DNA from: Thermoanaerobaculia bacterium
GTDB taxonomy: Bacteria > Acidobacteriota > Thermoanaerobaculia > UBA2201
Direction of reading: 5' to 3'
NCBI GenBank assembly: GCA_037478515.1
Contig: JBBFMJ010000001.1
Span: 1-25,324 of the forward strand
Length of the DNA stretch: 25,324 bases
A program made the translations under genes and the position numbers. Under the pieces are notes generated by a model. The model saw only the letters and a list, made by a program, of their open reading frames with translations. It was not told the origin of the DNA and did no database searches. Each line of letters starts with the position of its first letter. Position 1 is the stretch's first letter. Shown here piece after piece: positions 1,775-25,105 of the stretch.

Positions 1775-1782
1775 GGGGAGAT

Positions 1783-2940
1783 ATGAGAGAAATTGCAGTT
1801 TTAGGTTATGGTTTAACAAAATTTGGAGAGCTCTGGGATAAATCTTTAAGGGATCTTTTTGTAGAAGCATCCTTGAAGGCAATTGAAAAAGCAGGAATTG
1901 AGGAAATTGATGCTTTATATGTGGGATGTATGTCTTCTGGGCTCTTCAATGAACAGGAACACTTGGGTGCCCTTATGGCTGATTATTTAGGGAAAAATCC
2001 CATTCCCGCCACAAGGATTGAATCTGCTTGCGCTTCTGGTGGAGCTGCAGTCCTCCAAGGGGTTTATGCCATTGCCAGTGGATTTTATGAAACAGTTTTA
2101 GTTGGAGGGGTTGAAAAAATGACAGATATCTCCGGTGGAAATGCCACAATTGCTTTAGGAACTGCTGCTGATTCTTCCTATGAACTTTTCTTTGGTGCAA
2201 CCTTTCCAGGGCTTTATGCACTGATGGCAACTGCCCATATGGAAAAATATGGAACAACAAGGGATGCCCTTTCAATGGTTGCAGTCAAAAACCATTTCCA
2301 TGGAAAATTTAATCCCTATGCCCAGTTTCCCTTTGAAATTACAAAAGAACAGGTTTTACAATCCCCGATGGTGGCAGAGCCATTGCATCTTTTGGATTGT
2401 TCCCCAATTACAGATGGAGCCGCTGCAATTGTATTAACTACAAAGGAAAAGGCAGAAAAAATCGGAAAGCCATATATTTTGCTCAAAGGTTTTGGGCAGG
2501 CATCAGATACAATTGCCCTCTATCAAAGGGAAGACATTACATTTTTGGGAGCAGTTTCAAAGGCAGCAGAGAGGGCTTATAAAATGGCAAATATAGCCCC
2601 TAAAGATATCTGTGTTGCAGAAGTCCACGACTGCTTTACAATTGCAGAGATTATGGTTTATGAAGCATTGGGTTTTGCTGAAAAAGGAAAAGGGCAGGAG
2701 TTGATTTTAAAAGGTGAAACAAAATTGGGTGGGAAAATTCCAGTAAATACTTCTGGTGGGCTGAAAGCAAAGGGACATCCAGTAGGAGCAACAGGTGTTG
2801 CTCAAGTATGTGAAATTTTTCAACAACTTACAGGAGAAGCAGGAGAAAGACAAGTTGAAGGAGCAAAAATTGGGCTATGTCAAAATATGGGAGGCACTGG
2901 TGCCTCTTCAGTTGTAACAATTTGGGAGGTGAAAAAATGA
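1783..2940 (+). CDS. Acetyl-CoA acetyltransferase (thiolase), archaeal/SCP2-like type
   Basis: ESACASGG (nucleophile Cys), [46 protein letters not shown]; SD GGGGGAG upstream. Confidence 0.93.
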
Positions 2941-3335
2941 TTACTCCACCTATTGTCTGGAGAGAAAAAGCACAAAAATATCGTATGGAGGCAGGGAAAT
3001 GTAAAAAATGTGGAAAGATTTTGTTTCCACCAAGACTCATTTGTCCAAAATGTGGGGCAAAAGAATTTGAAACTATAAATTTGCCCTTAGAAGGAAAAAT
3101 TTTGTCTTGGACAGTCATACATACAGGCCACCCTGCTTTTTCAGATCTTCAACCCTATGGAATTTTAATTGTTGAACTTATAGAGGATGTAAAACTTTTA
3201 ATGCCCTTTGCAGATTTTACAAAAGAGGATTTAAAAATTGGAAATAAAGTAAAGATTGAATTTAGAAAGATTCAAGAAGGTGGCGAATCTGGTGTAATTG
3301 CCTATGGGTATAAAGCAGTCCCATGTTTAGAATAG
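2937..3335 (+). CDS. DUF35-family Zn-ribbon/OB-fold protein (scaffold of the thiolase/HMGCS complex)
   Basis: CKKCG..FPPR..CPKCG zinc ribbon followed by an OB fold ([38 protein letters not shown]). Start reassigned from 2877 to ATG 2937: ATGA overlap with the thiolase stop and SD GGAGGT at 2925-2930. Confidence 0.92.
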
Positions 3336-4930
3336 AATCAAAGATAAATACTTCTTCTGAAGAGTTTAAAGAAAATTATAAGTATCAAAAAGAAAAAATT
3401 GAAGAGTATTTAAAAATCTTAGAAGAAGTAAAAAAAGGGGGACATGAAGAAGCAAGACAAAAGCATGTAAAAAGGGGAAAAATGCTTGTTAGGGAAAGGA
3501 TAGATGCCCTCCTGGATCCTGGTTCACCTTTCATAGAACTAAATCCCCTTGCTGCCTATGGAATGTATGAAAATCAAGCACCCCAGGCAGGGATTATCAC
3601 TGGAATTGGAAGGGTATGCGGGCAGGAAGTTATGATTGTTGCAAATGATGCCACTGTAAAGGGTGGGACATATTTTCCAATTACAATAAAAAAACATATA
3701 AGGGCACAGGAAATTGCAATTGAAAATCGCCTTCCCTGCATTTATTTGGTGGATTCAGGTGGAATTTTTTTGCCCCTTCAAGAAGGAACTTTTCCAGATA
3801 AGGAACATTTTGGAAGAATTTTTTACAACCAAGCAGTTATGTCTTCCTTAAATATCCCACAAATAAGTGCTGTTATGGGATCCTGTACAGCAGGGGGTGC
3901 ATATCAACCAGCAATGTCAGATGAGACAATAATTGTTAAAGGGGAAGGGACAATTTTTATTGGTGGTCCTCCATTGGTCAAAGCAGCAACTGGAATTGAT
4001 GTTACACCTGAAGAACTTGGCGGTGCAGATGTTCATTGTAAAATTTCAGGGGTCTCTGATTATTATGCTTTAAATGATGAGCATGCAATAGCACTTTTGA
4101 GAAACATAATGGAAGGTGTTCCAAAGCCCCAGAAATTTCCCTTGGATAGAATTGAGCCAGAAGAACCCTATTATGATCCAGAAGAAATCTTAGGGATTAT
4201 TCCAAGGGATTTAAAAAAACCCTTTGATATAAGGGAAATTATTGCAAGGATCTTTGATGGAAGCAAGTTTTCTGAATTTAAAGAATATTATGGTCCAACA
4301 TTGGTTTGTGGTTTTGCTCGCCTTTATGGTTATCTGGTAGGGGTAGTGGCAAACAATGGAGTTTTGTTTTCCCAATCAAGCCAAAAGGGTGCCCATTTTA
4401 TTTCAATCTGTGCCATAAGGAAAATTCCACTGATTTTTTTACAGAATATAACTGGATTTATTGTGGGAAAGGAATATGAACATGGAGGGATTGCAAAGGA
4501 TGGGGCAAAGATGGTCCATGCTGTTGCAGTTGCACAGGTTCCAAAGTTTACAGTAATTGTAGGGGCCTCCCATGGGGCAGGAAATTATGCAATGTGTGGA
4601 AGGGCTTATGACCCAAGGTTTTTATTTATGTGGCCTACATCTAAAATTTCAGTTATGGGTGGGGAACAGGCAGCAGATGTTTTAGTACAAGTTAAAAGGG
4701 AACAGCTTAAAGCAAAAGGGGAAGAGCTTTCAAAAGAAGAAGAAGAAAAGATGAGAAAACCTGTTTTGGAAAAGTATGAATATGAATCAAGTGCCTATTA
4801 TTCCACTGCCAGGTTATGGGATGATGGGATTATCCTTCCATATGAGACAAGAAAAATTCTTGGGCTTTTGCTGGAAACATCTTTGAATGCCCCCATCCCA
4901 GACCACAAGTTTGGAGTTTTTAGAATGTAA
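3323..4930 (+). CDS. mccB: Acyl-CoA carboxylase carboxyltransferase, 3-methylcrotonyl-CoA carboxylase beta-subunit type
   Basis: [109 protein letters not shown]. No biotin carboxylase or BCCP gene in the window. Confidence 0.88.
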
Positions 4931-13572: not shown

Positions 13573-13616
13573 TTGTGAAAAAAAGCACTTGACAAAGAAT
13601 TTTTTTCATATAAAAT
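13573..13616 (+). promoter_or_regulatory. Promoter of the redox operon (TTGACA-16-TAAAAT) with an adjoining Rex/CRP-spaced GTG-N8-CAC site
   Basis: TTGACA 13589-13594, TAAAAT 13611-13616; TTGTGAA-AAAA-AGCACTT at 13573-13590 overlaps the start of the -35 box. Confidence 0.6.
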
Positions 13617-13625
13617 ATTTTGGAT

Positions 13626-14801
13626 ATGAAAAGCGTAATTTATCCCAACCTATCCCAGTTAGTAAAAAAGTATGGTAAGTTTGATGGTCGTCTCTGTTAT
13701 AACTGTGGAACCTGCACAGTTTCCTGTCCTATGGCAGACGAGACCACTTCTTTTCCAAGAAGGCCTATTCAAATGGTCCATGTGGGGGAGAAAGATAAAT
13801 TAATATCTATGGTTGAGCCATGGATCTGTCACTGGTGTGGGGACTGCTCAGCCAATTGTCCCCAGAAAGCAGAACCAGGGGAATCGATGAATACCATCAG
13901 AAAATACCTCTCCTCTGTTTATGACTGGACTGGGATTTCCTCAATTTTTAATAAATACTGGATTTTTAAAATTGGGCTTTATCTTTTTTCCATTGCTTTA
14001 ATCTTTGGATTGATTGCCTATTATCACATAAAAGAAGTGGGTATCTCTTTTTCTGACCTATTAAAAATGACCCCTTCGGAGATGAGTGATTCAAATTTAG
14101 GCCATGTCTTTGGAACAACTAAAATAATGTTTTATTTTACCTATGCTTTCTTCCTTTTGCCTTTAATTATACTCATAACCAACGGGATGAGGATGTGGTA
14201 TTTCACAATGAAAAGGAATAGTGCCCTTAAAATTCCCTTCTCCCTTTACCTTTCAGAACTTAAAAATTTCTTAATCCTTGGACTTACCCAGAAAAAATTC
14301 AAAGAATGCAAGGAAAAGAGTATGTGGACAAGGCACGTAACCCTTTTTGCTGGCTTTCTTTTGATTTCAATAATTGTATTTTTCTTTTTGAAATTTTTCC
14401 AGACCGATGCCATTTATCCCATCTACCATCCTCAAAGATGGCTTGGCTACATTGCTACAATCCTGATGCTTTATGGAAGTACTGCTATGATATTAGGGAG
14501 AATAACAAAGAAGGAAGAGATACACAAAAAGAGCGATTTTTCTGATTGGTCCCTTCCAATTTTATGTTTTCTTGTGGCTTTAAGCGGAATACTTATCCAT
14601 ATCTTTAGATATGTAAAAATGGAAAAGGCATCCCACTATATGTTTCTTGCTCATATTTTGATTTTAGCCCCGTTGATGCTCAAAGAACTTCCCTTTGGAA
14701 AGCTTGCCCACCTCCTCTACCATCCTCTTGGTCTTTACTTTAAAGGGGTAAAAGACAGAGCCATTAAGATGGAAGAAGAAAAAGAAGCAAAGGTTGCCTA
14801 A
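13626..14801 (+). CDS. qmoC: QmoC-like protein: HdrC-like 2x[4Fe-4S] domain plus NarI-like transmembrane (heme b) domain
   Basis: CYNCGTCTVSCP and CHWCGDCSANCP; several TM helices; YHPQRWLGY and PFGKLAH, which I recognise from QmoC; His pair in the last helix (LAH...KLAH). Start at ATG 13626 or TTG 13620. Confidence 0.8.
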   Translation: MKSVIYPNLSQLVKKYGKFDGRLCYNCGTCTVSCPMADETTSFPRRPIQMVHVGEKDKLISMVEPWICHWCGDCSANCPQKAEPGESMNTIRKYLSSVYDWTGISSIFNKYWIFKIGLYLFSIALIFGLIAYYHIKEVGISFSDLLKMTPSEMSDSNLGHVFGTTKIMFYFTYAFFLLPLIILITNGMRMWYFTMKRNSALKIPFSLYLSELKNFLILGLTQKKFKECKEKSMWTRHVTLFAGFLLISIIVFFFLKFFQTDAIYPIYHPQRWLGYIATILMLYGSTAMILGRITKKEEIHKKSDFSDWSLPILCFLVALSGILIHIFRYVKMEKASHYMFLAHILILAPLMLKELPFGKLAHLLYHPLGLYFKGVKDRAIKMEEEKEAKVA

Positions 14802-14828
14802 AATTTGAAATAAGGAGGGATATTAAAT

Positions 14829-15698
14829 ATGATTGAACAAAAGGTTGGAGCAGCAATGATAGTGGGTGGAGGGATTGGGGGAATGCAGGCAGCCCTAGAC
14901 CTGGCTGAATCAGGAATAAAGGTCTATATTGTGGAAAAGGACTCAGCCATTGGTGGAGTTATGGCTATGCTGGATAAAACCTTCCCCACCAATGACTGTG
15001 CTATGTGTACTATGGCTCCCCGTCTTGTTTCAATTGGAAGGCATAAGGATATTGAAGTTATTTCCATGGCATCCATTGAAAGGGTTGAAGGGGAAAAGGG
15101 AAATTTTAAAATAAGGATTAAAAAGAATCCAAGATATGTGGATGAAGAAAAGTGCACTGGCTGTGGCAGTTGTATTGAAAACTGCCCTGTCTATTTTAAA
15201 GTCCAGCCCTTAAAAATAGAAAGGACAAAACTGGATCCCAAATTTGAAAAGGTAAAGGAAATTGTAGCCAAACATAAGAACAGAAAAGGATTCCTGATGC
15301 CCATACTTCAGGAAATAAATGCCACCTATTATTACCTTCCAGAAAATGCTTTAAGATATGTGGCTGAAGAGACAGGCACACCTTTAATAAATATTATGAG
15401 AATAGCAACCTTTTACAGTGCCTTCAGCATAACCCCTAGGGGAAAGAATTTAATAAATGTATGCACCGGAACTGCTTGCTATGTGAAGGGAGCAGATCGT
15501 CTGATGGAAAAGTTTCAGGAAGTTTTGGATATTCCGGAAGGGGGAACCACAAAAGATATGCTCTTTACTTTAAAATCAGTTCGCTGCATTGGTTGTTGTG
15601 GTCTGGCTCCTGCAATAATGGTCAATGATACTGTCTATGGAAAACTTCTCCCCAAGGATGTGCCTGACATAATTAAAAAATACAAGGAGGCTTCATAA
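14829..15698 (+). CDS. Fusion: N-terminal HdrA fragment (FAD Rossmann start plus half a ferredoxin) and NuoE/HndA-like [2Fe-2S] domain
   Basis: Residues 1-121: IVGGGIGGMQAALDLA, EK...IGG.MA.LDKTFPTNDCAMC, PRYVDEEKCTGCGSCIENCPV. Residues ~136-289: LMPILQEIN..Y.YLP, ATFYSAFS..PRGK..INVCTGTACYVKG, VRCIGCCGLAP. SD AGGAGG upstream. Confidence 0.9.
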   Translation: MIEQKVGAAMIVGGGIGGMQAALDLAESGIKVYIVEKDSAIGGVMAMLDKTFPTNDCAMCTMAPRLVSIGRHKDIEVISMASIERVEGEKGNFKIRIKKNPRYVDEEKCTGCGSCIENCPVYFKVQPLKIERTKLDPKFEKVKEIVAKHKNRKGFLMPILQEINATYYYLPENALRYVAEETGTPLINIMRIATFYSAFSITPRGKNLINVCTGTACYVKGADRLMEKFQEVLDIPEGGTTKDMLFTLKSVRCIGCCGLAPAIMVNDTVYGKLLPKDVPDIIKKYKEAS

Positions 15699-15699
15699 T

Positions 15700-16083
15700 A
15701 TGCCAAAGCTAACCCTTGAAGATTTAAAGAAAAAAAGAGAAGAGGCAAGGTCTAAACTTTATTTAAGAGATGGAGAATTCAGAGGGAAAGTAATTGTCCA
15801 TATGGGAACCTGTGGAATTGCAGCAGGGGCAAGGGAAATAGTGGAACAATTTCTTGAAGAGGTGGAAAAAAACAATGCCAGAGACATTCAAATAACCACT
15901 TCCGGGTGTGCTGGTTTGTGCTCAAAGGAACCTATGGCAACGGTAGAGATAAAAGGTGCAGCTCCAGTAAAATACATAACCCTTAGCAGAGATAAAGTCA
16001 AAAAGATTTTTAAAGAACATATATTGGAAGGAAAAATTGTAGCTGAATATGCCCTTGGTGTGGGCTCTGAAAAAGGAGGTTAG
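15700..16083 (+). CDS. Thioredoxin-like ferredoxin, HndB/HydD-like
   Basis: VHMGTCGIAAGAR and TSGCAGLCSKEP; lies between the NuoE-like and NuoF-like genes, as hndB does in hndABCD. Confidence 0.85.
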   Translation: MPKLTLEDLKKKREEARSKLYLRDGEFRGKVIVHMGTCGIAAGAREIVEQFLEEVEKNNARDIQITTSGCAGLCSKEPMATVEIKGAAPVKYITLSRDKVKKIFKEHILEGKIVAEYALGVGSEKGG

Positions 16084-16086
16084 AAT

Positions 16087-17979
16087 ATGGCTACAAGAAG
16101 AATAGAACTTATGCTTTGTACTGGGACAGGTTGTGTGGCGGGGGGTGCCTTTAGAATAAAGGATGCCCTGGAGAAGGAAATAAAAAAACACAACCTTCAA
16201 AATGAAGTTTCTGTGGTTATAACTGGTTGTAATGGCTTTTGTGGGCAGGGTCCTATAATGGTTGTAAAACCAGACGATATTTTTTATGGTTTTTTAAATG
16301 AGCAGGAAATAGGGTATCTGGTGGAGGAACACCTTTTAAAAGGCAGGCCTGTAAAAAAATTTATGTTTACGCCCCCAGAAAAGAAGGAGCCCATTAAACT
16401 TTTGAGCGAAATTCCCTTCTTCCAGAAACAGATGCTTATTGTTTTAAGAAATAAAGGAATCATTGATCCGGAAAACATTGAAGAGTATATTGCCAGAGAT
16501 GGTTATGCTGCCCTGGAAAAGGTTCTAACCTCAATGAAGCCAGAAGAAGTCATAGAAGAGATAAAAAAATCTGGATTGAGGGGAAGGGGTGGTGCTGGAT
16601 TTCCCACGGGCCAGAAATGGGAAGTTTGTTTCAAACAGAAGGTTAAACCAAAATATTTAATCTGTAATTGTGATGAGGGAGATCCCGGCGCTTATATGGA
16701 CAGGTCTGTCTTTGAAACAGATCCCCATTCTGTAATTGAAGGTATGATAATTGCTTCCTACGCCTGTGATATAGATCAGGCATTTATTTATATAAGAACA
16801 GAATATCCCCTGGCAGTGCAGAGAGCAGCCAAGGCAATTCAGCAGGCAAAGGAATATGGACTTTTAGGGAAAAATATTTTGGGAACAAATTTTAGTCTGG
16901 ACATTGAAATAAGGGAAGGTTCAGGTGCCTTTGTATGTGGAGAAACCACTTCCCTGCAGCATTCCATTGAAGGTAAAAACCCAGAACCCAGGCAGAGACC
17001 TCCCAGGACTTCTGAAAAGGGCTTATGGGATCAACCCACAGTGGTAAATAATGTGGAAACCCTGGCAAATGTACCTGTTATCATTTTAAGGGGTGGTGAC
17101 TGGTATGCCAGCATTGGCACTGAAAAAAGCAAAGGGACTAAAATATTTTCTCTTGTAGGAAAGGTAAATAACACGGGCCTTGTGGAAGTTCCTATGGGTA
17201 TAACTTTGAGGGAAATGATTTATGATATAGGTGGTGGAATTCCAAAGGGGAAAAAATTTAAAGCAGTTCAAACGGGTGGTCCTTCTGGTGGCTGTATCCC
17301 AGAAAAATATCTGGATACACCTGTGGATTTTGAAACTTTAACTTCCCTGGGTTCAATGATGGGTTCTGGTGGTATGATTGTAATGGACGAAGATACTTGC
17401 ATGGTGGATGTAGCAAAATATTTTATACAATTTACCAATGATGAGTCCTGTGGAAAATGCACCATCTGCAGGGAAGGTTCAGGGGCTTTACTGGAGGTTT
17501 TAACAAGGATTACAGAAGGAAAAGGCAAGGAAAGAGATATTGAATATTTAGAAGAACTCTGTGCAGCCATAATTGATGGATCCCTCTGTGGTCTGGGAAA
17601 CAGTTTGCCCTATCCAGTTTTAACTACTCTTAAATATTTCAAAGAAGAATATGAAGCCCATATTAAAGAGAAAGCGTGCCCTGCCAGATCCTGTAAAAGT
17701 TTAATTAAATACTGGATTGATCCAGACAGGTGCGTGGGCTGTCTATTATGTATGAAAAACTGTCCCACCAATGCCATATCAGGGAAAACAAAATTTATCC
17801 ATACTATAAATTATGAATTATGTACAAAATGTGGAAACTGTTTTGATGTCTGCCCTGAAAAAGTAGGGGCAGTTAAAAAACTAACAGGTACTGAACCTGA
17901 AAAAGTGGTCTATTTAAAGGAGCCAGTTGCAGTGGGGGATTGGAAAAAACAAAAACAAGAGGAGGGAAAAAATGATTAA
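16087..17979 (+). CDS. NuoF/HndC/HydB-like NAD(P)H-binding flavoprotein, long form with extra FeS domains
   Basis: N-terminal Trx-like CTGTGC...GCNGFC; SGLRGRGGAGFPTG; CNCDEGDPGAYMDR; GAFVCGETTSL; NNVETLAN; GGPSGG; SCGKCTICREG/SLCGLG; EDTC and H...K.CPARSC site; C-terminal CVGCLLCMKNCP and CTKCGNCFDVCP. Confidence 0.93.
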   Translation: MATRRIELMLCTGTGCVAGGAFRIKDALEKEIKKHNLQNEVSVVITGCNGFCGQGPIMVVKPDDIFYGFLNEQEIGYLVEEHLLKGRPVKKFMFTPPEKKEPIKLLSEIPFFQKQMLIVLRNKGIIDPENIEEYIARDGYAALEKVLTSMKPEEVIEEIKKSGLRGRGGAGFPTGQKWEVCFKQKVKPKYLICNCDEGDPGAYMDRSVFETDPHSVIEGMIIASYACDIDQAFIYIRTEYPLAVQRAAKAIQQAKEYGLLGKNILGTNFSLDIEIREGSGAFVCGETTSLQHSIEGKNPEPRQRPPRTSEKGLWDQPTVVNNVETLANVPVIILRGGDWYASIGTEKSKGTKIFSLVGKVNNTGLVEVPMGITLREMIYDIGGGIPKGKKFKAVQTGGPSGGCIPEKYLDTPVDFETLTSLGSMMGSGGMIVMDEDTCMVDVAKYFIQFTNDESCGKCTICREGSGALLEVLTRITEGKGKERDIEYLEELCAAIIDGSLCGLGNSLPYPVLTTLKYFKEEYEAHIKEKACPARSCKSLIKYWIDPDRCVGCLLCMKNCPTNAISGKTKFIHTINYELCTKCGNCFDVCPEKVGAVKKLTGTEPEKVVYLKEPVAVGDWKKQKQEEGKND

Positions 17980-20900
17980 GATTATTGTGGATGGAAAAGA
18001 AGTAGAAATTGAAGGTGGTCAAAAATTAATTAAAGCAGTGGAAGCAGCAGGGGTAAAGGTTCCAACCCTTTGCTATCATAAGGCATTGAGCCCCTATGGT
18101 GCTTGCCGTTTGTGCGTGGTGGAGGTGGGGGCAAAGGGAAGGAGTAAATCCGTCCAGGCATCCTGTACTTACCCTGCCAGCGATGGGCTGGAAGTTTTGA
18201 CTAATACAGAGAGGGTAAGAAGGGTAAGAAAGATTGCTTTAGAACTTCTGCTTGCTAGGTGCCCCTCTTCTGAAACCATCCAGCTTCTGGCTGCTGAATA
18301 TGGGGTCTTTGAGCCCAGGATTGAAAAGAAAAATGAGGACTGTATAAATTGTGGGCTCTGCATTAGGATGTGTGAAGAGAGGATGGGAAGAAAGGTCTTA
18401 GGTTTTACAGGAAGGGGTCCAAGAAAAAAATTAGAGCCACCCTTTTCGGCAAAAAATCCTGCCTGCTGGGCCTGTGGTGCCTGTAATTTTATTTGCCCAG
18501 TGGGAAAGAAAGTTACAGATCTTACTACAGATCTGGAATTCAAACCCATTGAAGATAGATTCAATAGGGGTTTGAGCAGCAGGGCAGTTGCCCATATCCT
18601 CTATCCCCAGGCAGTACCAGCCAAGGCAGTTCTGGACCCAGAAAATTGTATTAGGTTAAATTATGATGCCTGTGGTATCTGCGCTGAAGTATGCGAACCC
18701 AAGGCAATAAATTTTGAAGACAAGGGTAAGGAGCTGGAAATAAATGTGGGTTCCATAATCCTTGCCCCTGGATTTGATCCTTACAAACCAGAGGAAAAGG
18801 AAGATTTGGGTTATAAAAAATTTCCAAATGTGGTTACCTCCATTGAATTTGAAAGAATCCTCTCTGCTTCAGGTCCCTACTGCGGAGAGGTAAAGAGGCC
18901 CTCTGATGGAAAACATCCAGAAAAGATTGCCTTTATCCAATGCGTTGGATCAAGAGAAAAGGAAAGAAACTGGTGCTCTTCTGTTTGCTGTATGTATGCC
19001 ACAAAGGAAGCAATTATGGCAAAGGAACATGCAGGGGAGAGTTTAAAATGTGATATCTATTTTATGGATGTGAGGGCATATTCAAAGGGTTTTGAACAAT
19101 ATTATGATAGTGCCAAGAAGCTGGGAATAAATTATATAAGGTGCAGGGTTCCAAAACTGGAGGAAAACCCAGAAAATAAAAATATCATAGTAACCTATCT
19201 TGGTGAGGATGATAGAAAATTAAAAGCAGAATATGATATGGTTATACTTTCCATAGGCCTCTGCCCTCCTTCAGATGCAAAGAAAATAGCTGAAAAATTT
19301 GGCATTGACTTGAACGAATTTGGTTTTGCTTCCTCTTCCACCTTCAAGCCAGTGGAGACAAAAAGGGAAGGGATTTACATTGCAGGTCCCTTCACGGAGC
19401 CCAAGGATATTCCAGAAACAGTAATGCAGGCAACTGCTTCTGCTTCTAAGGCACTTTCAGTGCTGGCTGATGTAAAGGGTCAGCTTATAAAGCCCATGGT
19501 ATTTCCTGAGGAAGTGGATGTTACAGGGCAGGAGCCCAGAATTGGGGTATTTGTATGCCATTGCGGAACAAATATTGCAGGAGTTGTAAATGTTCCGGAA
19601 GTGGTGGAATATGCAAAAACCCTTCCCAATGTGGTCTTTGCCACTAATACAATTTATACCTGCTCCAATGATACCCAGGAACTTATAAAACAAAAGATAA
19701 AGGAATACAATTTGAATAGAATTATTGTCTCTGCTTGCACTCCAAGAACCCATGAACCCCTTTTCAGAAATACTGTAAAGGAAGCGGGTTTAAATCCCTA
19801 TCTCTTTGAAATGGCAAATATAAGGGATCAAAACTCTTGGGTGCATATGCAGTTCCCCGATGCAGCAACTAAAAAGGCAAAGGACCTCGTCAGAATGGCA
19901 GTGGCAAAGGCAAGATTGCTAGAACCTTTACAGAACAGCTACATAGATATAATAAAAAATGCCCTGGTAATTGGGGGTGGTATTGCAGGTATGAAGGCAT
20001 CCATGGAGCTGGCAAATCAAGGATACAAAGTTTACCTTTTAGAAAAGACAGGGGAACTGGGTGGAAATTTAAGGAATATCCATTATTTATTAAACGGAGA
20101 AAATCCAAAAGAGGAGCTGGAAAAGATTATAAAAGAGGTAAAGGAAAATAAAAATATTGAAATTTACTTTAATGCAAAAATAGAAGAGGTGGAGGGCTCC
20201 GTGGGAAGGTATAAGACAAAGATAAAATCCAATGGAAATGAGTATGTTTTTGAACATGGAGTTGTAATAATTGCAATGGGTGGAAAGGAATATGAGCCCA
20301 AAGAATATATGTATGGAGAAGATGGAAGGGTCCTCACCCAGAGGCAATTGGAAGAAAAGATTGCAAAAAAAGAAATTAAACTTCCTGAAACTGTGGTAAT
20401 GATCCAGTGCGTGGGTTCCAGAGAAGGGGAAAGGCCATCCTGTTCAAGGATATGCTGCGGTATTGCCATAAAGAATGCATTAAAAATCAAGGAAATTTCA
20501 CCAAAAACCAATGTTTTCATACTTTACAGAGATGTAAGGGCTTATGGATTTAAAGAAAAGTATTACACTCTGGCAAGGGATAAAGGGGTAACCTTTATAA
20601 GATGGGATATTGAAGATGGAAAACCAGCCGTTTATAAAAATAATGGAAAAATATATGTTGATGTAAAGGATAAGATTTTGAATATGGAGCATACAATTCC
20701 AGCAGACCTTGTAGTTTTATCCACTGGGGTTATGCCTAACGAAGATCATAAAGAAGTTGCCCAGCATTTTAAGGTTCCGGTTACTGCAGAAGGATACTTT
20801 CTGGAAGCCCATATGAAACTCCGGCCTGTGGACTTTGCCACAGATGGTGTTTTCCTTGCAGGTCTTGCTCATTTCCCCAAGACCATTGATGAAAGCATAA

Positions 20901-21220
20901 TCCAGGCACAGGCATCGGCAGCAAGGGCAGCAACTATTCTTTCAAAGGACAAATTAGAGCTGGAAGCCACAATTTCAAAAGTCATTGATGAAAACTGCGA
21001 TGGTTGTGCTTACTGTGTGGATACCTGTCCTTACAAAGCCATTACCCTTCTGGAATATGTTTTTCAGGGCAGCATAAAGAAGACCGTGGAAGCCAATGAA
21101 AGCTTATGCAAGGGCTGTGGGACCTGTATGGCAACCTGCCCAAAGAAAGGTATTCTTGTAAAGGGCTTTACCTTGGAGCAGCTGCAGGCACAGGTCTTTG
21201 CAGCACTTGAACAATCTTAA
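17972..21220 (+). CDS. Fusion: NuoG/HndD-like N-terminal FeS region, remainder of HdrA copy 1, and a complete second HdrA/QmoB-like module
   Basis: Start reassigned from 17927 to ATG 17972 (SD AGGAGG). Res 1-178: PTLCY, GACRLCVVE, ASC, CINCGLCIRMC, CWACGACNFICP. Res ~192 onward: RFNRGLSSRA...YPQAVP, ENC...CGICAEVC, VGSIILAPGF, TSIEFERILSASGP, FIQCVGSR, CSSVCCMYATKEA, AGP...PKDIPETV. Then IGVFVCHCG.NI, ACTPRTHEPLF, NIRDQ, ALVIGGGIAG, MIQCVGSR, CSRICC, EAH.KLRPV, CDGCAYCVDTCP, CKGCGTCMATCP. Confidence 0.92.
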   Translation: MIKIIVDGKEVEIEGGQKLIKAVEAAGVKVPTLCYHKALSPYGACRLCVVEVGAKGRSKSVQASCTYPASDGLEVLTNTERVRRVRKIALELLLARCPSSETIQLLAAEYGVFEPRIEKKNEDCINCGLCIRMCEERMGRKVLGFTGRGPRKKLEPPFSAKNPACWACGACNFICPVGKKVTDLTTDLEFKPIEDRFNRGLSSRAVAHILYPQAVPAKAVLDPENCIRLNYDACGICAEVCEPKAINFEDKGKELEINVGSIILAPGFDPYKPEEKEDLGYKKFPNVVTSIEFERILSASGPYCGEVKRPSDGKHPEKIAFIQCVGSREKERNWCSSVCCMYATKEAIMAKEHAGESLKCDIYFMDVRAYSKGFEQYYDSAKKLGINYIRCRVPKLEENPENKNIIVTYLGEDDRKLKAEYDMVILSIGLCPPSDAKKIAEKFGIDLNEFGFASSSTFKPVETKREGIYIAGPFTEPKDIPETVMQATASASKALSVLADVKGQLIKPMVFPEEVDVTGQEPRIGVFVCHCGTNIAGVVNVPEVVEYAKTLPNVVFATNTIYTCSNDTQELIKQKIKEYNLNRIIVSACTPRTHEPLFRNTVKEAGLNPYLFEMANIRDQNSWVHMQFPDAATKKAKDLVRMAVAKARLLEPLQNSYIDIIKNALVIGGGIAGMKASMELANQGYKVYLLEKTGELGGNLRNIHYLLNGENPKEELEKIIKEVKENKNIEIYFNAKIEEVEGSVGRYKTKIKSNGNEYVFEHGVVIIAMGGKEYEPKEYMYGEDGRVLTQRQLEEKIAKKEIKLPETVVMIQCVGSREGERPSCSRICCGIAIKNALKIKEISPKTNVFILYRDVRAYGFKEKYYTLARDKGVTFIRWDIEDGKPAVYKNNGKIYVDVKDKILNMEHTIPADLVVLSTGVMPNEDHKEVAQHFKVPVTAEGYFLEAHMKLRPVDFATDGVFLAGLAHFPKTIDESIIQAQASAARAATILSKDKLELEATISKVIDENCDGCAYCVDTCPYKAITLLEYVFQGSIKKTVEANESLCKGCGTCMATCPKKGILVKGFTLEQLQAQVFAALEQS

Positions 21221-21236
21221 ATTAAAGAGGTGAAAT

Positions 21237-21653
21237 ATGTCTGAGAACTTTGAACCCTTCATAATTGCTTTTTGTTGTAACTGGTGTTCCTATGCAGCAG
21301 CAGACCTGGCAGGGGTCTCCAGGTTTCAGTATCCCCCTAATATGAGGCTTATTAGAGTTATGTGTTCTGGTATGGTGCATCCAAACCTTATAATTGATGC
21401 CTTGACAAGGGGTGCTGACGGCGTAATTGTTTGTGGATGCCACCCAGGGGACTGCCATTATCTTTCAGGAAATCTGGTTGCAAAGAAAAGGGAAGAGGGT
21501 ATCTATTTAATGCTGGATGACTTGGGGATTGAAAGGGACAGGTTCCGCTTGGAATGGATTTCTGCTGCAGAAGGAATTAAATTTTCTCAGGTTATGAAGG
21601 AATTCACCGAGCAAATAAGAAAACTGGGTCCCAGCCCTTATAGAACATTTTAA
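21237..21653 (+). CDS. mvhD: Methyl-viologen-reducing hydrogenase delta subunit ([2Fe-2S], MvhD/FlpD family)
   Basis: AFCCNWCSYAAAD, RLIRVMCSG, GADGV..CGCHPGDCHY, RFRLEWISAAEG. Confidence 0.95.
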   Translation: MSENFEPFIIAFCCNWCSYAAADLAGVSRFQYPPNMRLIRVMCSGMVHPNLIIDALTRGADGVIVCGCHPGDCHYLSGNLVAKKREEGIYLMLDDLGIERDRFRLEWISAAEGIKFSQVMKEFTEQIRKLGPSPYRTF

Positions 21654-21662
21654 GGAGTGCTT

Positions 21663-21854
21663 ATGAACCTCTCCAAAATATTTGAAGGAAAAAAATTTAT
21701 GTGGGATGGGGGGGAGTATAAAGATGAAAAGGAAGCCACAGAAGTGATGAATAAATACAAAAATGATGGTTTTGAGACCTATCTTTATAAGGAAAATGAT
21801 AAATATTATGTTTTTACAAGAAAAGTGGTATCAGAAATTAAGGTTGAAAGCTGA
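21663..21854 (+). CDS. Small hypothetical protein (63 aa) inside the Hdr-Mvh operon
   Basis: SD AAGGAG at 21652-21657, 5 nt before ATG 21663 (alternative GTG 21657). KKFMWDG...Y...GFE.....YYVFTRKVV; fills the gap between mvhD and mvhG; no Cys. Confidence 0.8.
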   Translation: MNLSKIFEGKKFMWDGGEYKDEKEATEVMNKYKNDGFETYLYKENDKYYVFTRKVVSEIKVES

Positions 21855-21859
21855 TGCCC

Positions 21860-21888
21860 TTGAAAATGTTTTAAAAAAAGCTTAATAT
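21860..21888 (+). promoter_or_regulatory. Candidate internal promoter upstream of mvhG
   Basis: TTGAAA (21860-21865), 17 nt, TAATAT (21883-21888); SD AAGGAGGT before ATG 21934. The region is AT-rich, so a chance match is possible. Confidence 0.45.
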
Positions 21889-21891
21889 AAA

Positions 21892-21911
21892 TTGAGAGTT
21901 GGGACTCTCAA
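21892..21911. repeat. Perfect 8-bp hairpin in the mvhG leader
   Basis: TTGAGAGT-TGGG-ACTCTCAA; no plus-strand U tract follows. Confidence 0.65.
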
Positions 21912-21933
21912 AATAAATAAATAAGGAGGTTTT

Positions 21934-22860
21934 ATGGCAGTAAAAGTTGCTAATGAATGTTTTGCCATCTGTCAGGGATGCGAAATTACCATCCTGGACA
22001 TCGGAGAAACCCTTCTGGAACTCCTTCCCCAGCTTGAATTTGTACATATGCCTGTTCTGATGGATCACAAACTCTTTGGTCAGACCGGTGAAAAAGATAA
22101 GATGGAGATACCTGAAGCAGATGTGGGAATCATCTCAGGAGGAGTGAGAAATGAGGAAAACAAAGAAGTTCTAAAGGAAATGAGAGCCAAATGCAAGACC
22201 CTTATTGCCCTTGGTTCCTGTGCCTGTTTTGGTGGGATTCCAGCCCTGGCAAATCAGTTTCAACTGGCTGAACTTTATGAAAAGGTTTACAGGCAATCCA
22301 AAAGTACTGATCCCGCCGAAACTCCTTCAAAAGAGGTACCCCCTTTGACAGATAGAGTTTATGCTTTGGATGAGATTGTAAAAGTAGATGTATATATCCC
22401 TGGCTGTCCAACTCAACCTGAAATTATTCTGGAAGCTTTAACTGCCCTTCTTCAGGGCAAGCCCTTCTCCCTGCCAGAAAGATCTGTGTGCGATGATTGT
22501 CCTACCCAGAGGCAGAAGAAAGCAGATATCTCCTTGAGAAGACCCCTGGAAAATGTAACAGATATTACAAAAAAAGTGGAAGAATCCAGATGTTTTATGG
22601 AACTGGGATATTTATGCCTGGGTCCTGTGACCAAGTCAGGTTGTGGTGGTCATGAGAAAGTTCCAAGGTGTATAAAAGGATATATGCCTTGCAGAGGTTG
22701 TTTTGGTCCTATCAGAAAGGGTGCAAATCCACTGGTGGAAATGATTGGTGCCTTATCATCCATTGGGCTTGATCCAAACCTGATCCCAGACAGGGCAGCA
22801 ACAATTCAAAGGTATATTGGTGCCCACAACAGGTTAAGACCACTACCAAAAAGACCATAA
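21934..22860 (+). CDS. mvhG: [NiFe]-hydrogenase small subunit, group 3c (MvhG-like)
   Basis: CQGCEITILD, ALGSCACFGGIP, YIPGCP, VCDDCP, RCF....LCLGPVT..GC, C....MPCRGCFGP; no Tat signal. Confidence 0.92.
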   Translation: MAVKVANECFAICQGCEITILDIGETLLELLPQLEFVHMPVLMDHKLFGQTGEKDKMEIPEADVGIISGGVRNEENKEVLKEMRAKCKTLIALGSCACFGGIPALANQFQLAELYEKVYRQSKSTDPAETPSKEVPPLTDRVYALDEIVKVDVYIPGCPTQPEIILEALTALLQGKPFSLPERSVCDDCPTQRQKKADISLRRPLENVTDITKKVEESRCFMELGYLCLGPVTKSGCGGHEKVPRCIKGYMPCRGCFGPIRKGANPLVEMIGALSSIGLDPNLIPDRAATIQRYIGAHNRLRPLPKRP

Positions 22861-22875
22861 TTTAAGGAGGAAAAA

Positions 22876-24318
22876 ATGAAAAAAATAGTTATACAACCCG
22901 TATCAAGGATTGAAGGACATGCAAAGGTAACAATCCAGCTGGACGATGCTGGAAATGTCCAGGACACCTGGGTAAATGTAATAGAACTAAGGGGCTTTGA
23001 AAAGTTCTGTATTGGAAAGCCCGTAGAGGAACTTCCCAGGATTGTGACTTCCATCTGTGGTGTCTGCCCCTGGTCTCACCATCTTGCCTCATCCAAGGCA
23101 TGCGATGCTGTCTTTGGTGTGCAGCCCCCACCTGCAGGTAGAAAATTAAGGGAACTCTGCAATTCCATTGCCTATACTGAAGAACACACTCTCCATTTTT
23201 ATTTTCTGGCAGGCGCAGATTTTGTAATGGGTCCTGATGAGGATTATTCTATAAGAAATGTAATTGGTATTGCCCAGAAATATCCAGACATAGGTAAGAA
23301 AGTTGTAAGGTGCAGGCATCTTGCAGCAGTTATGCTGGACATTGTTTCAGGAAAAGCAATCCACCCTGTCACTTCTGTTCCAGGGGGAGTAAGCAAACCT
23401 TTAAGGCAAGAAGAAGTTGAAAAATTAAAACCTATGGCAGAGGAAATGCTGGAATTTGCAAAATTTTCCATTGATTTTGCCAAGAAAAATATCTTCCCCA
23501 AATTTCTGGATGCAGTAAAAACCATTGGGGTAATTGAAACAGGTTTTCTGGGAACCGTAAAGGATGATGGTGCTTTGGACCTCTATGATGGGAAACTAAG
23601 GATGATGACCCCCGATGGGAAGTATGAGGACTTTACTTATGAACAGTATACTGATTTTATTGCTGAGCATATTGAGCCCTGGTCCTATTTGAAGTTTCCC
23701 TATATGAAGAAAGCAGGTGGTTTTTCTATGGACCTGGCAAATCCCAAAGGAATTTACAGAACCAATACCCTTGCCAGAATAAATGTATGTGATTATATTC
23801 CAACCCCACTTGCCCAAGCAGAACTGGAAGAATTCAGAAAGAATTTTGGAAGACCCTGTCAGCTTACACTCCTTTATAACTGGGCACGCCTTATAGAACT
23901 TTTATACAATGCAGAAATGGTTGTAAAACTTTTAAATGACCCAGAAATTACTTCCACTGATACCAGGGTTCCAGTAAAGCCCAGAGCAGCAAGGGGTATT
24001 GGCTGTGTGGAAGCCCCCAGAGGAACCCTCATCCACGATTATGAAACCGATGCCAATGGGATTGTTACAAATGTTAATTTAATTGTAGGAACTACCCACA
24101 ACAATGCTCCCATAAATATGTCTGTTAAGAAAACTGCCAAAGAACTCATAAAAGATGGAAAATATGATCAGGGAATTTTAAACCGCTTAGAGATGGCAAT
24201 TAGAGCCTATGACCCCTGCCTCTCCTGTGCTACACATAAGCTGGATGGTACCCTTCCTGTTAAAGTTGAAATAATTGACAAAAACTTCAAAAAAATAGAT
24301 ACCTTGGTAAATTATTAA
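22876..24318 (+). CDS. mvhA: [NiFe]-hydrogenase large subunit, group 3c (MvhA-like)
   Basis: PVSRIEGHAK, ELRGFEKF, L1 SICGVCPWSHH, EAPRGTLIHDY, TTHN, L2 RAYDPCLSCATH followed by a 26-aa cleavable C-terminal extension. Cys, not Sec. Confidence 0.94.
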   Translation: MKKIVIQPVSRIEGHAKVTIQLDDAGNVQDTWVNVIELRGFEKFCIGKPVEELPRIVTSICGVCPWSHHLASSKACDAVFGVQPPPAGRKLRELCNSIAYTEEHTLHFYFLAGADFVMGPDEDYSIRNVIGIAQKYPDIGKKVVRCRHLAAVMLDIVSGKAIHPVTSVPGGVSKPLRQEEVEKLKPMAEEMLEFAKFSIDFAKKNIFPKFLDAVKTIGVIETGFLGTVKDDGALDLYDGKLRMMTPDGKYEDFTYEQYTDFIAEHIEPWSYLKFPYMKKAGGFSMDLANPKGIYRTNTLARINVCDYIPTPLAQAELEEFRKNFGRPCQLTLLYNWARLIELLYNAEMVVKLLNDPEITSTDTRVPVKPRAARGIGCVEAPRGTLIHDYETDANGIVTNVNLIVGTTHNNAPINMSVKKTAKELIKDGKYDQGILNRLEMAIRAYDPCLSCATHKLDGTLPVKVEIIDKNFKKIDTLVNY

Positions 24319-24324
24319 AAATTT

Positions 24325-24360
24325 AAGGCACGGCTTAAAAAATAAGCCGTGCCTTTTCTT
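24325..24360 (+). terminator. Intrinsic terminator-like hairpin after mvhA
   Basis: AAGGCACGGCTTA-AAAAA-TAAGCCGTGCCTT: perfect 13-bp stem with a 5-nt loop; its end runs into TTTTCTT. Confidence 0.85.
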
Positions 24361-24852
24361 ATGGAAAATTACCCATCTTACTGTCTTAAGAAAAATTTAG
24401 TTTTAGGTTGTGGAAATATCTTTTTTGGCGATGATGGTTTTGGTCCTGAATTTATAAAGTACCTGGAAGAAAGTGGATTGATACCAGAGGATACAATTGC
24501 CATAAATGCAGGTTTAAGCATAAGAGAAATTTTATTTAACATTGTTTTAAGTGATAAAAAGCCAGAAAGGATAGTTATAATAGATGCTGTAGATTTAGGG
24601 GAAGAGCCAGGAGAGATTTTTGAGGTAGACCTGGATGAGATTCCCAAAATTAAGATAGATGATTTTTCTATGCACCAGATGCCCACTTCCAATCTTTTAA
24701 AGGAATTAAAAGAGAAAGGAAATGTGGAGGTAAGGGTTTTATCAATTCAGGTAGAAAATATCCCCGAAGAGATAAGCCCTGGAATATCAGAAAAACTAAA
24801 AAATTCTTATGAAAAAATGTATCAAAAATTAGTAAAAATACTGGAGGAATAA
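24361..24852 (+). CDS. Hydrogenase maturation endopeptidase (HyaD/HycI/FrhD family)
   Basis: LVLGCGNIFFGDDGFG, IVIIDAVD.G..PG, SMHQ. ATG 24361 preferred because GTG 24349 lies inside the terminator stem. Confidence 0.92.
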   Translation: MENYPSYCLKKNLVLGCGNIFFGDDGFGPEFIKYLEESGLIPEDTIAINAGLSIREILFNIVLSDKKPERIVIIDAVDLGEEPGEIFEVDLDEIPKIKIDDFSMHQMPTSNLLKELKEKGNVEVRVLSIQVENIPEEISPGISEKLKNSYEKMYQKLVKILEE

Positions 24853-24853
24853 T

Positions 24854-25105
24854 ATGCACGAGTGGAAAATAACAGAATCAATTATTGAGGAAATTTTAAA
24901 GCAAGCAGAAGCCAGTGGGATAAAAAAAGTTAATAAGGTCATTCTTTCCATTGGGCAGGACTCAGATTTAACCCCTGATGTTATAAATTTTTGTTTTGAT
25001 AATTTAAAAAACAATTTTCCTATAAATAGAGACCTGGATCTGGAAATAAAAATGAGGGAGGGAATGGGCGGAGTAATAATTGAGGAGATTGAAGGAGAAG
25101 ATTAG
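24854..25105 (+). CDS. hypA: HypA-like nickel metallochaperone lacking the zinc-finger domain (83 aa)
   Basis: N-terminal MHE Ni motif, V..V.L.IG..S...P....F.F, L.LEI, then directly GGVIIEEIEGED; no CxxC pair. Confidence 0.8.
   Translation: MHEWKITESIIEEILKQAEASGIKKVNKVILSIGQDSDLTPDVINFCFDNLKNNFPINRDLDLEIKMREGMGGVIIEEIEGED

Follow-up and report, generated by a model that had tools for sequence, protein, structure and literature searches.

What accepts the electrons when a bacterium oxidises H2 with an Mvh-type [NiFe] hydrogenase? To our knowledge bacteria make no heterodisulfide of coenzymes M and B (CoM-S-S-CoB), and the real acceptors of bacterial Mvh-type hydrogenases are therefore an open question. 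Such hydrogenases are often labelled 'MvhADG-HdrABC', as in two metagenome-genome papers. Here we analyse an operon of eleven genes from a Thermoanaerobaculia bacterium (assembly GCA_037478515.1), which occupies positions 13626–25105 of the window, meaning the whole stretch of DNA analysed, 25,324 nucleotides (nt) long and comprising the entire contig C1 (JBBFMJ010000001.1). Our reading, to which we assign a probability of roughly 0.55, is that the eleven genes encode one membrane-anchored, H2-oxidising hydrogenase that bifurcates electrons in two stages.

The genes form a single tight operon, all on the + strand, with intergenic gaps of −8 to +79 nt. A preliminary description of the window had proposed one co-directional operon holding a QmoC-like protein, HdrA, a NuoE/NuoF/NuoG-N cassette, MvhD, MvhG, MvhA and maturases, and searches of Pfam, NCBIfam and PDB sequences recover all of these parts on the + strand. 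That gene list was correct in what it named; it omitted a conserved gene for a 63-aa protein at 21663–21854. The features, several of which share a reading frame, are as follows.

13626–14801, +: QmoC-like subunit with an HdrC-like N-terminus for two [4Fe-4S] clusters, six hydrophobic helices and conserved His residues (NF038018)
14829–15203, +: N-terminal fragment of HdrA-1, with the start of the FAD-binding region, a DCxxC pair and, from the inserted ferredoxin domain, the first CxxCxxCxxxCP motif
15204–15698, +: NuoE/HydC (BfuC) [2Fe-2S] domain, in frame with the HdrA-1 N-terminal fragment (PF01257, E 1e-47)
15700–16083, +: HndB-like thioredoxin-like ferredoxin with three Cys only (NF041612, E 3.6e-10)
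16087–17979, +: HydB/BfuB-type NuoF with [2Fe-2S], FMN/NAD(P) site, N3-type cluster and two [4Fe-4S] (7T2R_B)
17972–18511, +: BfuA/NuoG-like N-terminus with [2Fe-2S] and two CxxCxxCxxxC motifs (9MQX_A)
18512–19516, +: C-terminal fragment of HdrA-1, with a linker, the inserted ferredoxin domain's second Cys motif and the remainder of the thioredoxin-reductase domain
19517–21220, +: HdrA-2, with an N-terminal cluster domain, a reduced thioredoxin-reductase domain and a C-terminal ferredoxin domain for two [4Fe-4S]
21237–21653, +: MvhD [2Fe-2S] adaptor (PF02662, E 9e-55)
21663–21854, +: Cys-free 63-aa protein with the pattern GKKxMWDG ... GFE ... TRRVV, found in all nine loci
21934–22860, +: MvhG/VhuG-type [NiFe] hydrogenase small subunit (PF01058; NF045875, E 1e-65)
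22876–24318, +: MvhA/VhuA-type (group 3c-like) [NiFe] hydrogenase large subunit (NF041785 VhuA, E 6e-140)
24349–24852, +: hydrogenase maturation endopeptidase of the FrhD/HycI type
24854–25105, +: short HypA of 83 aa that lacks the zinc-finger region

The split HdrA and its HydBC-type cassette

The Bfu cassette, composed of the NuoE, HndB-like, NuoF and BfuA-like parts, interrupts the inserted ferredoxin domain of the first HdrA unit (HdrA-1) exactly, and it is joined to both of the broken ends. Residues 8–122 of the HdrA-1 N-terminal fragment align to residues 145–258 of 5ODC_A and 153–267 of 8RVU_a, and a profile view of the same protein gives HdrA model residues 141–257 followed by NuoE. 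The DCxxC pair of this fragment corresponds to C194/C197 of 5ODC; both the pair (DCAMC) and the Cys motif are invariant in nine loci. The C-terminal fragment, residues 164–445 of the large protein in which it lies, aligns to 5ODC_A 245–510. Its Cys residues 226, 234, 237, 241, 324, 335, 339 and 340 are invariant, as is a CCMYATK motif, and it holds the four Cys of the HA4 cluster together with a flavin-adjacent Lys at the position of 5ODC Lys409, by our own count on the alignment. In the class II benzoyl-CoA reductase (BCRII), to which we return below, the equivalent Lys280 lies 3.4 Å from the flavin N5 (preprint 10.64898/2026.04.10.717634).

The large protein is 1082 aa long and joins a NuoG/HydA N-terminus to two HdrA units, with 37 invariant Cys. 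In its second HdrA unit (HdrA-2), residues 520–754 align to 5ODC_A 2–237 and residues 912–1074 to 487–645. This unit lacks both the DCxxC pair and the inserted ferredoxin domain, an absence that is kept in eight loci, and HdrA-1 and HdrA-2 jointly amount to one copy of every HdrA domain. A single full-length HdrA with all four domains, as in Mvh-HdrABC, is thus not what the operon encodes; the domains are spread over the two units. The 'tandem HdrA' proposed earlier holds in that there are two units, but these are really one HdrA split over two genes and a second, reduced HdrA. By these alignments HdrA-1 is the sole unit that keeps the hallmarks of bifurcation, namely the DCxxC pair and the inserted ferredoxin domain. 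We also considered selenocysteine or a frameshift as the cause of the split and rejected both, because nine loci keep the two fusion open reading frames (ORFs), which are clean.

The NuoE fusion carries one invariant CxxCxxCxxxC(P) motif and the large protein three. Four [4Fe-4S] clusters are predicted from these four motifs, with at least one ferredoxin-like domain being built from both polypeptides; in the Cys pairing across the two chains, motif 1 could partner either motif 2 or the first BfuA motif. Since one flavin adenine dinucleotide (FAD) domain is split over two genes, and each piece is fused to a Bfu part, Hdr and Bfu are best read as one enzyme. The fusion of the cassette and the shared ferredoxin-like domain are, at the level of sequence, the strongest evidence for a single Hdr–Bfu enzyme. 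Together with cross-phylum synteny and invariant cofactor ligands, the gene split and the fusions indicate that the parts almost certainly form one complex. The single complex suggested at the outset, linking H2, NAD(P)(H), quinone and possibly ferredoxin, is to that extent supported; we infer its physical assembly, its reactivity with quinone, the direction of its electron flow and its stoichiometry. The composition of the 'hybrid' it described likewise stands, and the wiring can now be refined, with the Bfu cassette set in the inserted ferredoxin domain and only HdrA-1 carrying the bifurcation hallmarks.

The cassette itself resembles the core of bifurcating hydrogenases. The NuoE domain has Thermoanaerobacter kivui HydC (8A6T_C) as its best PDB match (E 5e-48), and NuoF that of 7T2R_B, subunit B of NiFe-HydABCSL (E 1e-237, residues 1–596); NuoF aligns end to end to HydB of 7T2R, 7Q4V and 8A6T (E 1e-222 to 1e-237). 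The Cys residues of the BfuB clusters are present in NuoF at positions 11/16/48/52, 549–559 and 579–589, and its C-terminal pair of [4Fe-4S] sites is a domain of the ferredoxin-binding type. The BfuA-like N-terminus matches 9MQX_A (E 2e-38, residues 2–179) as well as the FeFe_hydrog_A6 and NuoG N-terminus models; Cys 34, 45, 48, 65, 124–134 and 165–175 are invariant, and the His-ligated cluster is absent. The features of BfuC and BfuA are thus both found, and both occur solely fused to HdrA pieces. The HndB-like protein is 57–80% identical in four loci and is elsewhere fused to the N-terminus of NuoF. The conserved cofactors of the Bfu core are flavin mononucleotide (FMN) together with six iron–sulfur clusters (PMC9304861), and the absence of two such clusters in HoxF/HydB has been read as loss of bifurcation (PMC11406978). 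On this basis the Bfu module of the window would couple the reduction of NAD(P)+ to that of ferredoxin.

The nucleotide site of NuoF, CGETTSL...RPPRT (window 16936–17010), resembles the CGESTAL...RPPRT of T. kivui HydB (8A6T_B), an enzyme that is NADP-specific (PMC10021017), and is probably of the NADP type. The NuoF proteins of six relative loci have the NAD-type CGEET...PPFP or PPYP. Even a relative that is 85% identical (L012) has the motif of the NAD type, so that specificity may have switched recently in the window lineage.

Hydrogenase, membrane port and spread of the operon

The hydrogenase part is of the Mvh type throughout: MvhG and MvhD are present, and MvhA has intact motifs, CGVC at residue 61 and DPCLSCATH at 446, followed by a cleavable C-terminal tail of 26 aa. 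MvhD is 71–96% identical across loci and always lies 3' of the fused HdrA gene. The 63-aa protein, which matches no family, is a candidate extra subunit on the strength of its conservation; its gene takes another position in the operon in two of the nine loci. The HypA at 24854–25105 has no CxxC zinc finger. In L022, a locus of the same genus, and in the Eisenbacteria locus L036 the protease gene is likewise followed by a similarly short HypA gene, which apparently makes the short form a conserved variant.

Model NF038018 (qmoC) matches the first protein of the operon over positions 11–358 of 360 (E 1.9e-54) with 185.5 bits, below its cut-off of 300, and we accordingly place the protein in the broader QmoC family by sequence and not as a QmoC equivalog. 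The HdrC chains of 8RVU and 5ODC align to its residues 9–97. Eight Cys and five His (134, 160, 237, 343 and 362) are invariant in 60 homologs, and His 325 and 337 are conserved in >90% of them. The invariant His lie in or near helices, of which the protein has six hydrophobic segments, and the NarI family PF02665 is found on many of the homologs. These features point to a putative di-haem b membrane part, linked to quinone, and the subunit would bind both haem b and quinone. The QmoC-like module occupies the place that HdrBC has in sister operons, which fits the earlier proposal that quinone replaces the heterodisulfide as high-potential acceptor; the reactivity of the module with quinone is a prediction.

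The gene set is not peculiar to this contig. A gene-neighbourhood search of the kind suggested in the preliminary description finds it in at least eight named lineages, and the same set of nine to ten genes is shared by lineages named in six or more phyla. The fused 1082-aa protein has many full-length relatives at 61–68% identity, whose source names include the Acidobacteriota-type Terriglobia and Korobacteraceae as well as Eisenbacteria, Gemmatimonadota, Fidelibacterota, Thermodesulfobacteriota and 'Deltaproteobacteria'; relatives of the QmoC-like protein add Marinimicrobia, Bacteroidota and Syntrophorhabdales. The other Bfu-type loci examined, seven in all, each carry HdrA'-NuoE, some form of NuoF, the fused protein, MvhD, MvhG/MvhA and the small protein; the QmoC-like gene and the protease are each present in all but one. 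The QmoC-like gene is missing where the contig ends (L038) and is found in 8/8 loci not so cut; L015 is the locus in which no protease was detected. Between phyla the hydrogenase genes differ in their order relative to the remaining genes, and regulatory genes (DRTGG, CBS, HATPase, PHP) lie inside the cluster at some loci. Complete HdrA'-NuoE fusions fall into about ten clusters of two size classes in a library clustered at 50% identity. A scan of a genome collection with the fused protein alone, using over-specific peptide patterns, returned solely HdrA-HdrA proteins of 47–50% identity that lack the NuoG part.

Comparison with close relatives shows which elements are exchanged. The same-genus genome G001 (97% complete) has the same operon (identities of 77% for the QmoC-like protein, 96% for MvhD, 92% for MvhA and 79% for the small protein), with the Bfu cassette exchanged for an in-frame GltD/NfnB-like NADPH module. 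That module sits in the same inserted ferredoxin domain and gives a 1484-aa 'HdrL'-type protein. Its gene lies in L022 (contig C104, 3959–8413, minus strand), where an unrelated ORF of 179 aa stands between the QmoC-like gene and hdrL. In three genomes of the same family or order (G002–G004), hdrC and hdrB occupy the position of the QmoC-like gene and are accompanied by a single HdrA, split by a Bfu cassette of the same type, and by mvhDGA. These exchanges indicate that the ports are modular: as far as gene content can tell, a high-potential port (HdrBC or QmoC-like) and a low-potential port (Bfu or GltD-like) swap around a constant Mvh–HdrA core. In addition, L037 (5811–8954, Gemmatimonadota) and L038 (848–4021, Thermodesulfobacteriota) encode fusions of NuoF with a GltD-like FAD/NADPH part, 1047–1057 aa long, which would have two pyridine-nucleotide sites, as in Nfn-Bfu/Stn-type enzymes. 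A further genome among those compared (G007), flagged as unpublished, underlies none of these statements.

The bin to which the window belongs (2.1 Mb in 418 contigs, 82.6% complete, 36% GC) was obtained from metagenomes of sediment or hot springs. Of the words sampled from the window, 99% and 88% occur in two metagenome samples, and relatives share the synteny, including that of upstream genes, which rules out an assembly artefact.

We looked across this genome for other partners. The window has no CCG domain, and the genome has just two CCG proteins (contigs C84 and C215), neither adjoining an hdrA, so that an HdrB encoded with hdrA, as in Mvh-HdrABC, was not found. The aprA model gives weak matches only in this genome and in G001 (25–28 bits, the cut-off being 642). 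The search for a NIR_SIR domain in the window genome gave none, which makes DsrAB unlikely, and Rnf, MqnA and an [FeFe] hydrogenase were likewise not found. The earlier statement that HdrB, AprAB and an H-cluster are missing from the window is borne out by these searches, and the possibility raised with it, that an hdrB or aprAB elsewhere is the true partner, found no support genome-wide in the 82.6%-complete bin. A role in sulfate reduction (Qmo–Apr) was considered for the window organism and rejected, there being no AprA above the cut-off and no NIR_SIR domain.

With respect to quinone, a search for menaquinone synthesis, also suggested beforehand, finds MenA, just above its cut-off, and not MqnA; the genome further has two NuoH-containing clusters of complex I. 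At L031 (contig C61, 5992–8150), MenA adjoins a 402-aa protein that matches a hydrazine dehydrogenase model with 89 bits (cut-off 900). On this weak match the neighbour is presumably multihaem-cytochrome-like, which fits a respiratory chain based on menaquinone. The only other hydrogenase found in the genome is a four-gene [NiFe] enzyme of group 3b (sulfhydrogenase-like, NAD(P)-linked) at L033 (contig C58, 2161–6035). In G001 the operon hydrogenase is the only [NiFe] hydrogenase found. At L035 (contig C32, 4636–10167), three genes for 2-oxoacid:ferredoxin oxidoreductase are followed by a NuoE-like, a HydB-like NuoF and a 254-aa BfuA-like protein, a cluster that resembles the uncharacterised 'Por-Bfu' type of Schut et al. 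2022.

Proposed route and direction of the electrons

In Mvh-Hdr and in BCRII, electrons enter by an MvhD-like subunit and the C-terminal ferredoxin domain, the low-potential exit is the inserted ferredoxin domain, and the high-potential exit is formed by HdrC-like clusters (preprint 10.64898/2026.04.10.717634). Placed on the parts described above, this scheme would have H2 split at the [NiFe] site of MvhAG and the electrons passed by MvhD, through the C-terminal ferredoxin domain and the N-terminal cluster domain of HdrA-2, to the FAD of HdrA-1. The HdrA-1 flavin would then bifurcate, sending the high-potential electron over the HdrC-like clusters of the QmoC-like subunit and its b-haems to menaquinone. 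The low-potential electron would exit through the inserted ferredoxin domain, itself physically part of the Bfu module, and reach the HydBC core. This core would reduce NAD(P)+ (in the window organism probably NADP+) and would also reduce external ferredoxin, at its C-terminal domain of the ferredoxin type. Formation of NAD(P)H and reduced ferredoxin would thereby be paid for by the exergonic quinone branch, at H2 pressures much lower than those that a HydABC-type enzyme needs.

The size of this effect can be estimated if menaquinone is set at −74 mV, NAD(P)H at −280 to −380 mV and ferredoxin at −500 mV, as standard or physiological potentials. With menaquinone as sink the calculated equilibrium H2 pressure is about 0.05–0.5 Pa, and for the HydABC-type reaction alone it is about 15,000 Pa; by this calculation the quinone branch makes the H2 pressure required for reduced ferredoxin and NAD(P)H four to five orders of magnitude lower. 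The uptake direction is favoured, since the GltD variant of G001 runs in uptake only on these numbers.

Several points weigh against this proposal. Among runs that contain window sequence no RNA run is listed, in a search that covered any kind of run and was not aimed at RNA. An AF2 model of the QmoC-like protein (pLDDT 83.6) was used for a PDB fold search, in which the HdrC-like part finds matches and the membrane domain matches no NarI or other cytochrome-b fold; the case for haem b and quinone binding therefore rests on homology and the conserved His. HdrA-2 retains the HA4 cluster Cys and the flavin-proximal Lys, which makes a second active flavin possible. Passing low-potential electrons through a second bifurcating core looks energetically wasteful, and near 0.1–5 Pa H2 the system is close to equilibrium, so that in vivo it might run either way. 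Finally, the absences listed above are provisional because the genome is 82.6% complete.

A first alternative keeps both the complex and its direction and takes the HydBC-like part as an NAD(P)+ reductase only, ferredoxin being no substrate, so that the enzyme would be a single-stage H2:menaquinone/NAD(P)+ bifurcating hydrogenase. The operon of G001 has just such a simple arrangement, a GltD/NfnB-like NADPH module at the same site and no ferredoxin port; the window NuoF bears an NADP-type signature, and the reaction of H2 with menaquinone and NADP+ is exergonic down to about 0.05 Pa H2. However, NuoF keeps the full C-terminal pair of [4Fe-4S] sites and the N-terminal [2Fe-2S], aligned with those of bifurcating HydB structures, and it is to such extra clusters that bifurcation and the interaction with ferredoxin have been tied (PMC9304861, PMC11406978). 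We thus regard the simpler enzyme as unlikely in the window organism.

The complex could also run in reverse, with menaquinol as the high-potential donor and NAD(P)H plus reduced ferredoxin, delivered by the Bfu core, as the low-potential donor, the two being confurcated to reduce protons. Electrons at the quinol level would then be discharged as H2, with no use of the membrane potential. Every module is reversible in characterised relatives, and a genome with genes for 2-oxoacid:ferredoxin oxidoreductase, in which no Rnf or [FeFe] hydrogenase was found, needs an outlet for reduced ferredoxin. With ferredoxin as the sole low-potential donor the equilibrium lies at about 5 Pa H2, a pressure that anoxic sediments can have. 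The NAD(P)H/ferredoxin pair, however, brings it to no more than 0.07–0.5 Pa, and for the GltD variant of G001 it is 0.05 Pa, where evolution of H2 is implausible; moreover, the group 3b hydrogenase of the genome could be the outlet instead. Net evolution of H2 is therefore a doubtful role for the complex.

Between these two directions lies a third possibility, to which we give a similarly low weight, namely that the complex is a reversible three-port hub, joining H2, menaquinone and NAD(P)H/ferredoxin by two bifurcation sites in series and poised at ~0.1–5 Pa H2. At H2 pressures above that range it would use trace H2 to form reduced ferredoxin and NAD(P)H, and at lower pressures it would discharge menaquinol as H2 without drawing on the membrane potential. 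If this were true, the operon would represent a hitherto unrecognised means by which syntrophic, fermentative and soil bacteria set H2 thresholds and carry out 'reverse electron transport', and many bacterial 'group 3c' hydrogenases that lack a heterodisulfide would gain a function.

Still less probable is an order of events like that of BCRII, in which HydBC would confurcate NAD(P)H and reduced ferredoxin and feed the HdrA flavin, with menaquinone as the high-potential acceptor and the hydrogenase, producing H2, as the low-potential one. A HydBC-type module does feed an HdrA-type module in BCRII, and the reaction would be strongly exergonic. The ports are reversed, however: Bfu of BCRII enters by the MvhD-like BamF and the C-terminal ferredoxin domain, an entry that is taken here by MvhD/MvhAG, whereas Bfu is fused here into the inserted ferredoxin domain, the low-potential exit; and most of the free energy would be wasted. 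Lastly, the operon might encode two or more separate enzymes, for instance a Qmo-like membrane complex and a soluble hydrogenase, given that operon membership by itself proves no complex and that the hydrogenase genes vary in their order relative to the rest between phyla, but the sharing of one FAD domain by two fusion proteins makes Hdr and Bfu inseparable, MvhD always follows the fused HdrA gene and the QmoC-like gene accompanies the set wherever the contig is not cut, so that we consider separate enzymes very improbable.

Relation to known systems and neighbouring features

Among the systems closest to the bifurcating uptake hydrogenase that we propose is BCRII, the BamBCDEFGHI or 'Bam-Bfu' complex of Geobacter metallireducens (PMC9304861; cryo-EM preprint 10.64898/2026.04.10.717634). 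Both combine a HydBC-type (NuoE/NuoF/NuoG-N) module with tandem HdrA and an MvhD-type adaptor, in both an HdrC-like cluster pair is the high-potential exit, and in both only the first thioredoxin-reductase unit bears the hallmarks of bifurcation, TrxR1 of BamE, a fused HdrA dimer, likewise keeping the CxxC pair. Unlike BCRII, the operon has no tungsten BamBC (no gene of the AOR family or like BamC is among the window ORFs), and its input is a [NiFe] hydrogenase acting by way of MvhD. Furthermore, Bfu is spliced into the low-potential exit here and feeds the entry in BCRII; the high-potential module is the membrane-bound QmoC-like subunit here and a soluble BamD/electron-transferring flavoprotein (ETF) route there; and HdrA-1 is split over two genes here.

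With the MvhAGD-HdrABC of methanogens (5ODC, 8RVU; group 3c), the complex shares MvhA, MvhG and MvhD, an FAD-binding HdrA with HA4 Cys, DCxxC and the N-terminal, inserted and C-terminal cluster domains, and an HdrC-like pair of [4Fe-4S] sites. It differs in that HdrB with its CCG disulfide site is absent, the functions of HdrA are divided between a split and a reduced unit, the low-potential acceptor would be the built-in Bfu in place of free ferredoxin or polyferredoxin, and the assembly would be membrane-anchored. QmoABC of sulfate reducers is similar in having a pair of HdrA-like flavoprotein units together with an MvhD-like element and a subunit of the QmoC type; in contrast, the QmoC-like protein of the window scores under the cut-off, no aprAB or dsrAB was found in the genome, and a hydrogenase and Bfu are attached. 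The operon is thus excluded from each of these three groups, from Mvh-HdrABC by the lack of HdrB, from QmoABC by the sub-cut-off QmoC and the lack of Apr, and from BCRII by the lack of BamBC.

NiFe-HydABCSL of Acetomicrobium mobile (7T2R/7T30; PMC8880783) and [FeFe] HydABC (8A6T, 7Q4V) have homologues of HydB and HydC and a BfuA-like N-terminus that feeds the core, as here. In those enzymes, however, the hydrogenase joins HydA directly, whereas an HdrA flavin stage and a quinone branch are interposed in the window, where the [NiFe] subunits are of the Mvh type. HdrA of the HdrL type (Desulfobacterium autotrophicum, PMC2702500) carries an NAD(P)H module in the inserted ferredoxin domain and is followed by mvhD, and this variant is exactly the one found in the otherwise identical operon of G001; HdrL has an in-frame GltD-like domain, whereas the window has a HydBC-type cassette of four genes that splits the hdrA gene. 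As judged from its genes, the window complex would work most like a recombination of the Mvh-Hdr, Qmo, BCRII and Bfu systems.

A full-text literature search, from whose coverage one key review fell outside, found no paper that describes an operon or complex of this composition. The earlier remark that no characterised complex is known stands with respect to composition; it has to be qualified in that BCRII already couples HydBC-type and HdrA-type modules, wired differently. If our reading is correct, BCRII would be joined by a second known enzyme that couples two different bifurcation mechanisms, the first, among the published cases that we found, with a hydrogenase and a direct anchor to membrane and quinone. 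For a large subset of bacterial Mvh-type hydrogenases, the operon family offers a testable answer to the question of acceptors: menaquinone as the high-potential acceptor, and a built-in module for NAD(P)+ and ferredoxin as the low-potential one. The lower H2 requirement is relevant to H2 thresholds, to autotrophy and to redox balance in soils, sediments and hot springs. The natural swaps (HdrBC against QmoC-like; Bfu against a GltD-like module or a NuoF-GltD fusion) provide a system for studying and engineering modular bifurcating assemblies.

Two further elements belong to the operon and its flanks.

13589–13616, +: promoter-like site, TTGACA and TAAAAT with a 16-nt spacer (11/12 consensus positions, by consensus match only)
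24325–24355, +: 13-bp stem-loop between mvhA and the protease gene

The promoter-like site is the one strong site in an AT-rich region of 385 nt that lies 5' of the operon and is shared with a divergent ParA-like gene; the count of promoter-like sites in this region is not above that in shuffled sequence. The start codons are likely ATG 13626 and ATG 17972 rather than TTG 13620 and TTG 17927. The stem-loop, perfect over its 13 bp, lies directly 3' of mvhA and overlaps with the GTG at which the protease gene starts; a role in transcript processing, stability or attenuation is possible. At 722–4930 the window holds a trio of genes for an archaeal-type HMG-CoA synthase, a thiolase and a DUF35 (OB-fold) protein, followed by an overlapping carboxyltransferase gene, an arrangement that is unusual for a bacterium.

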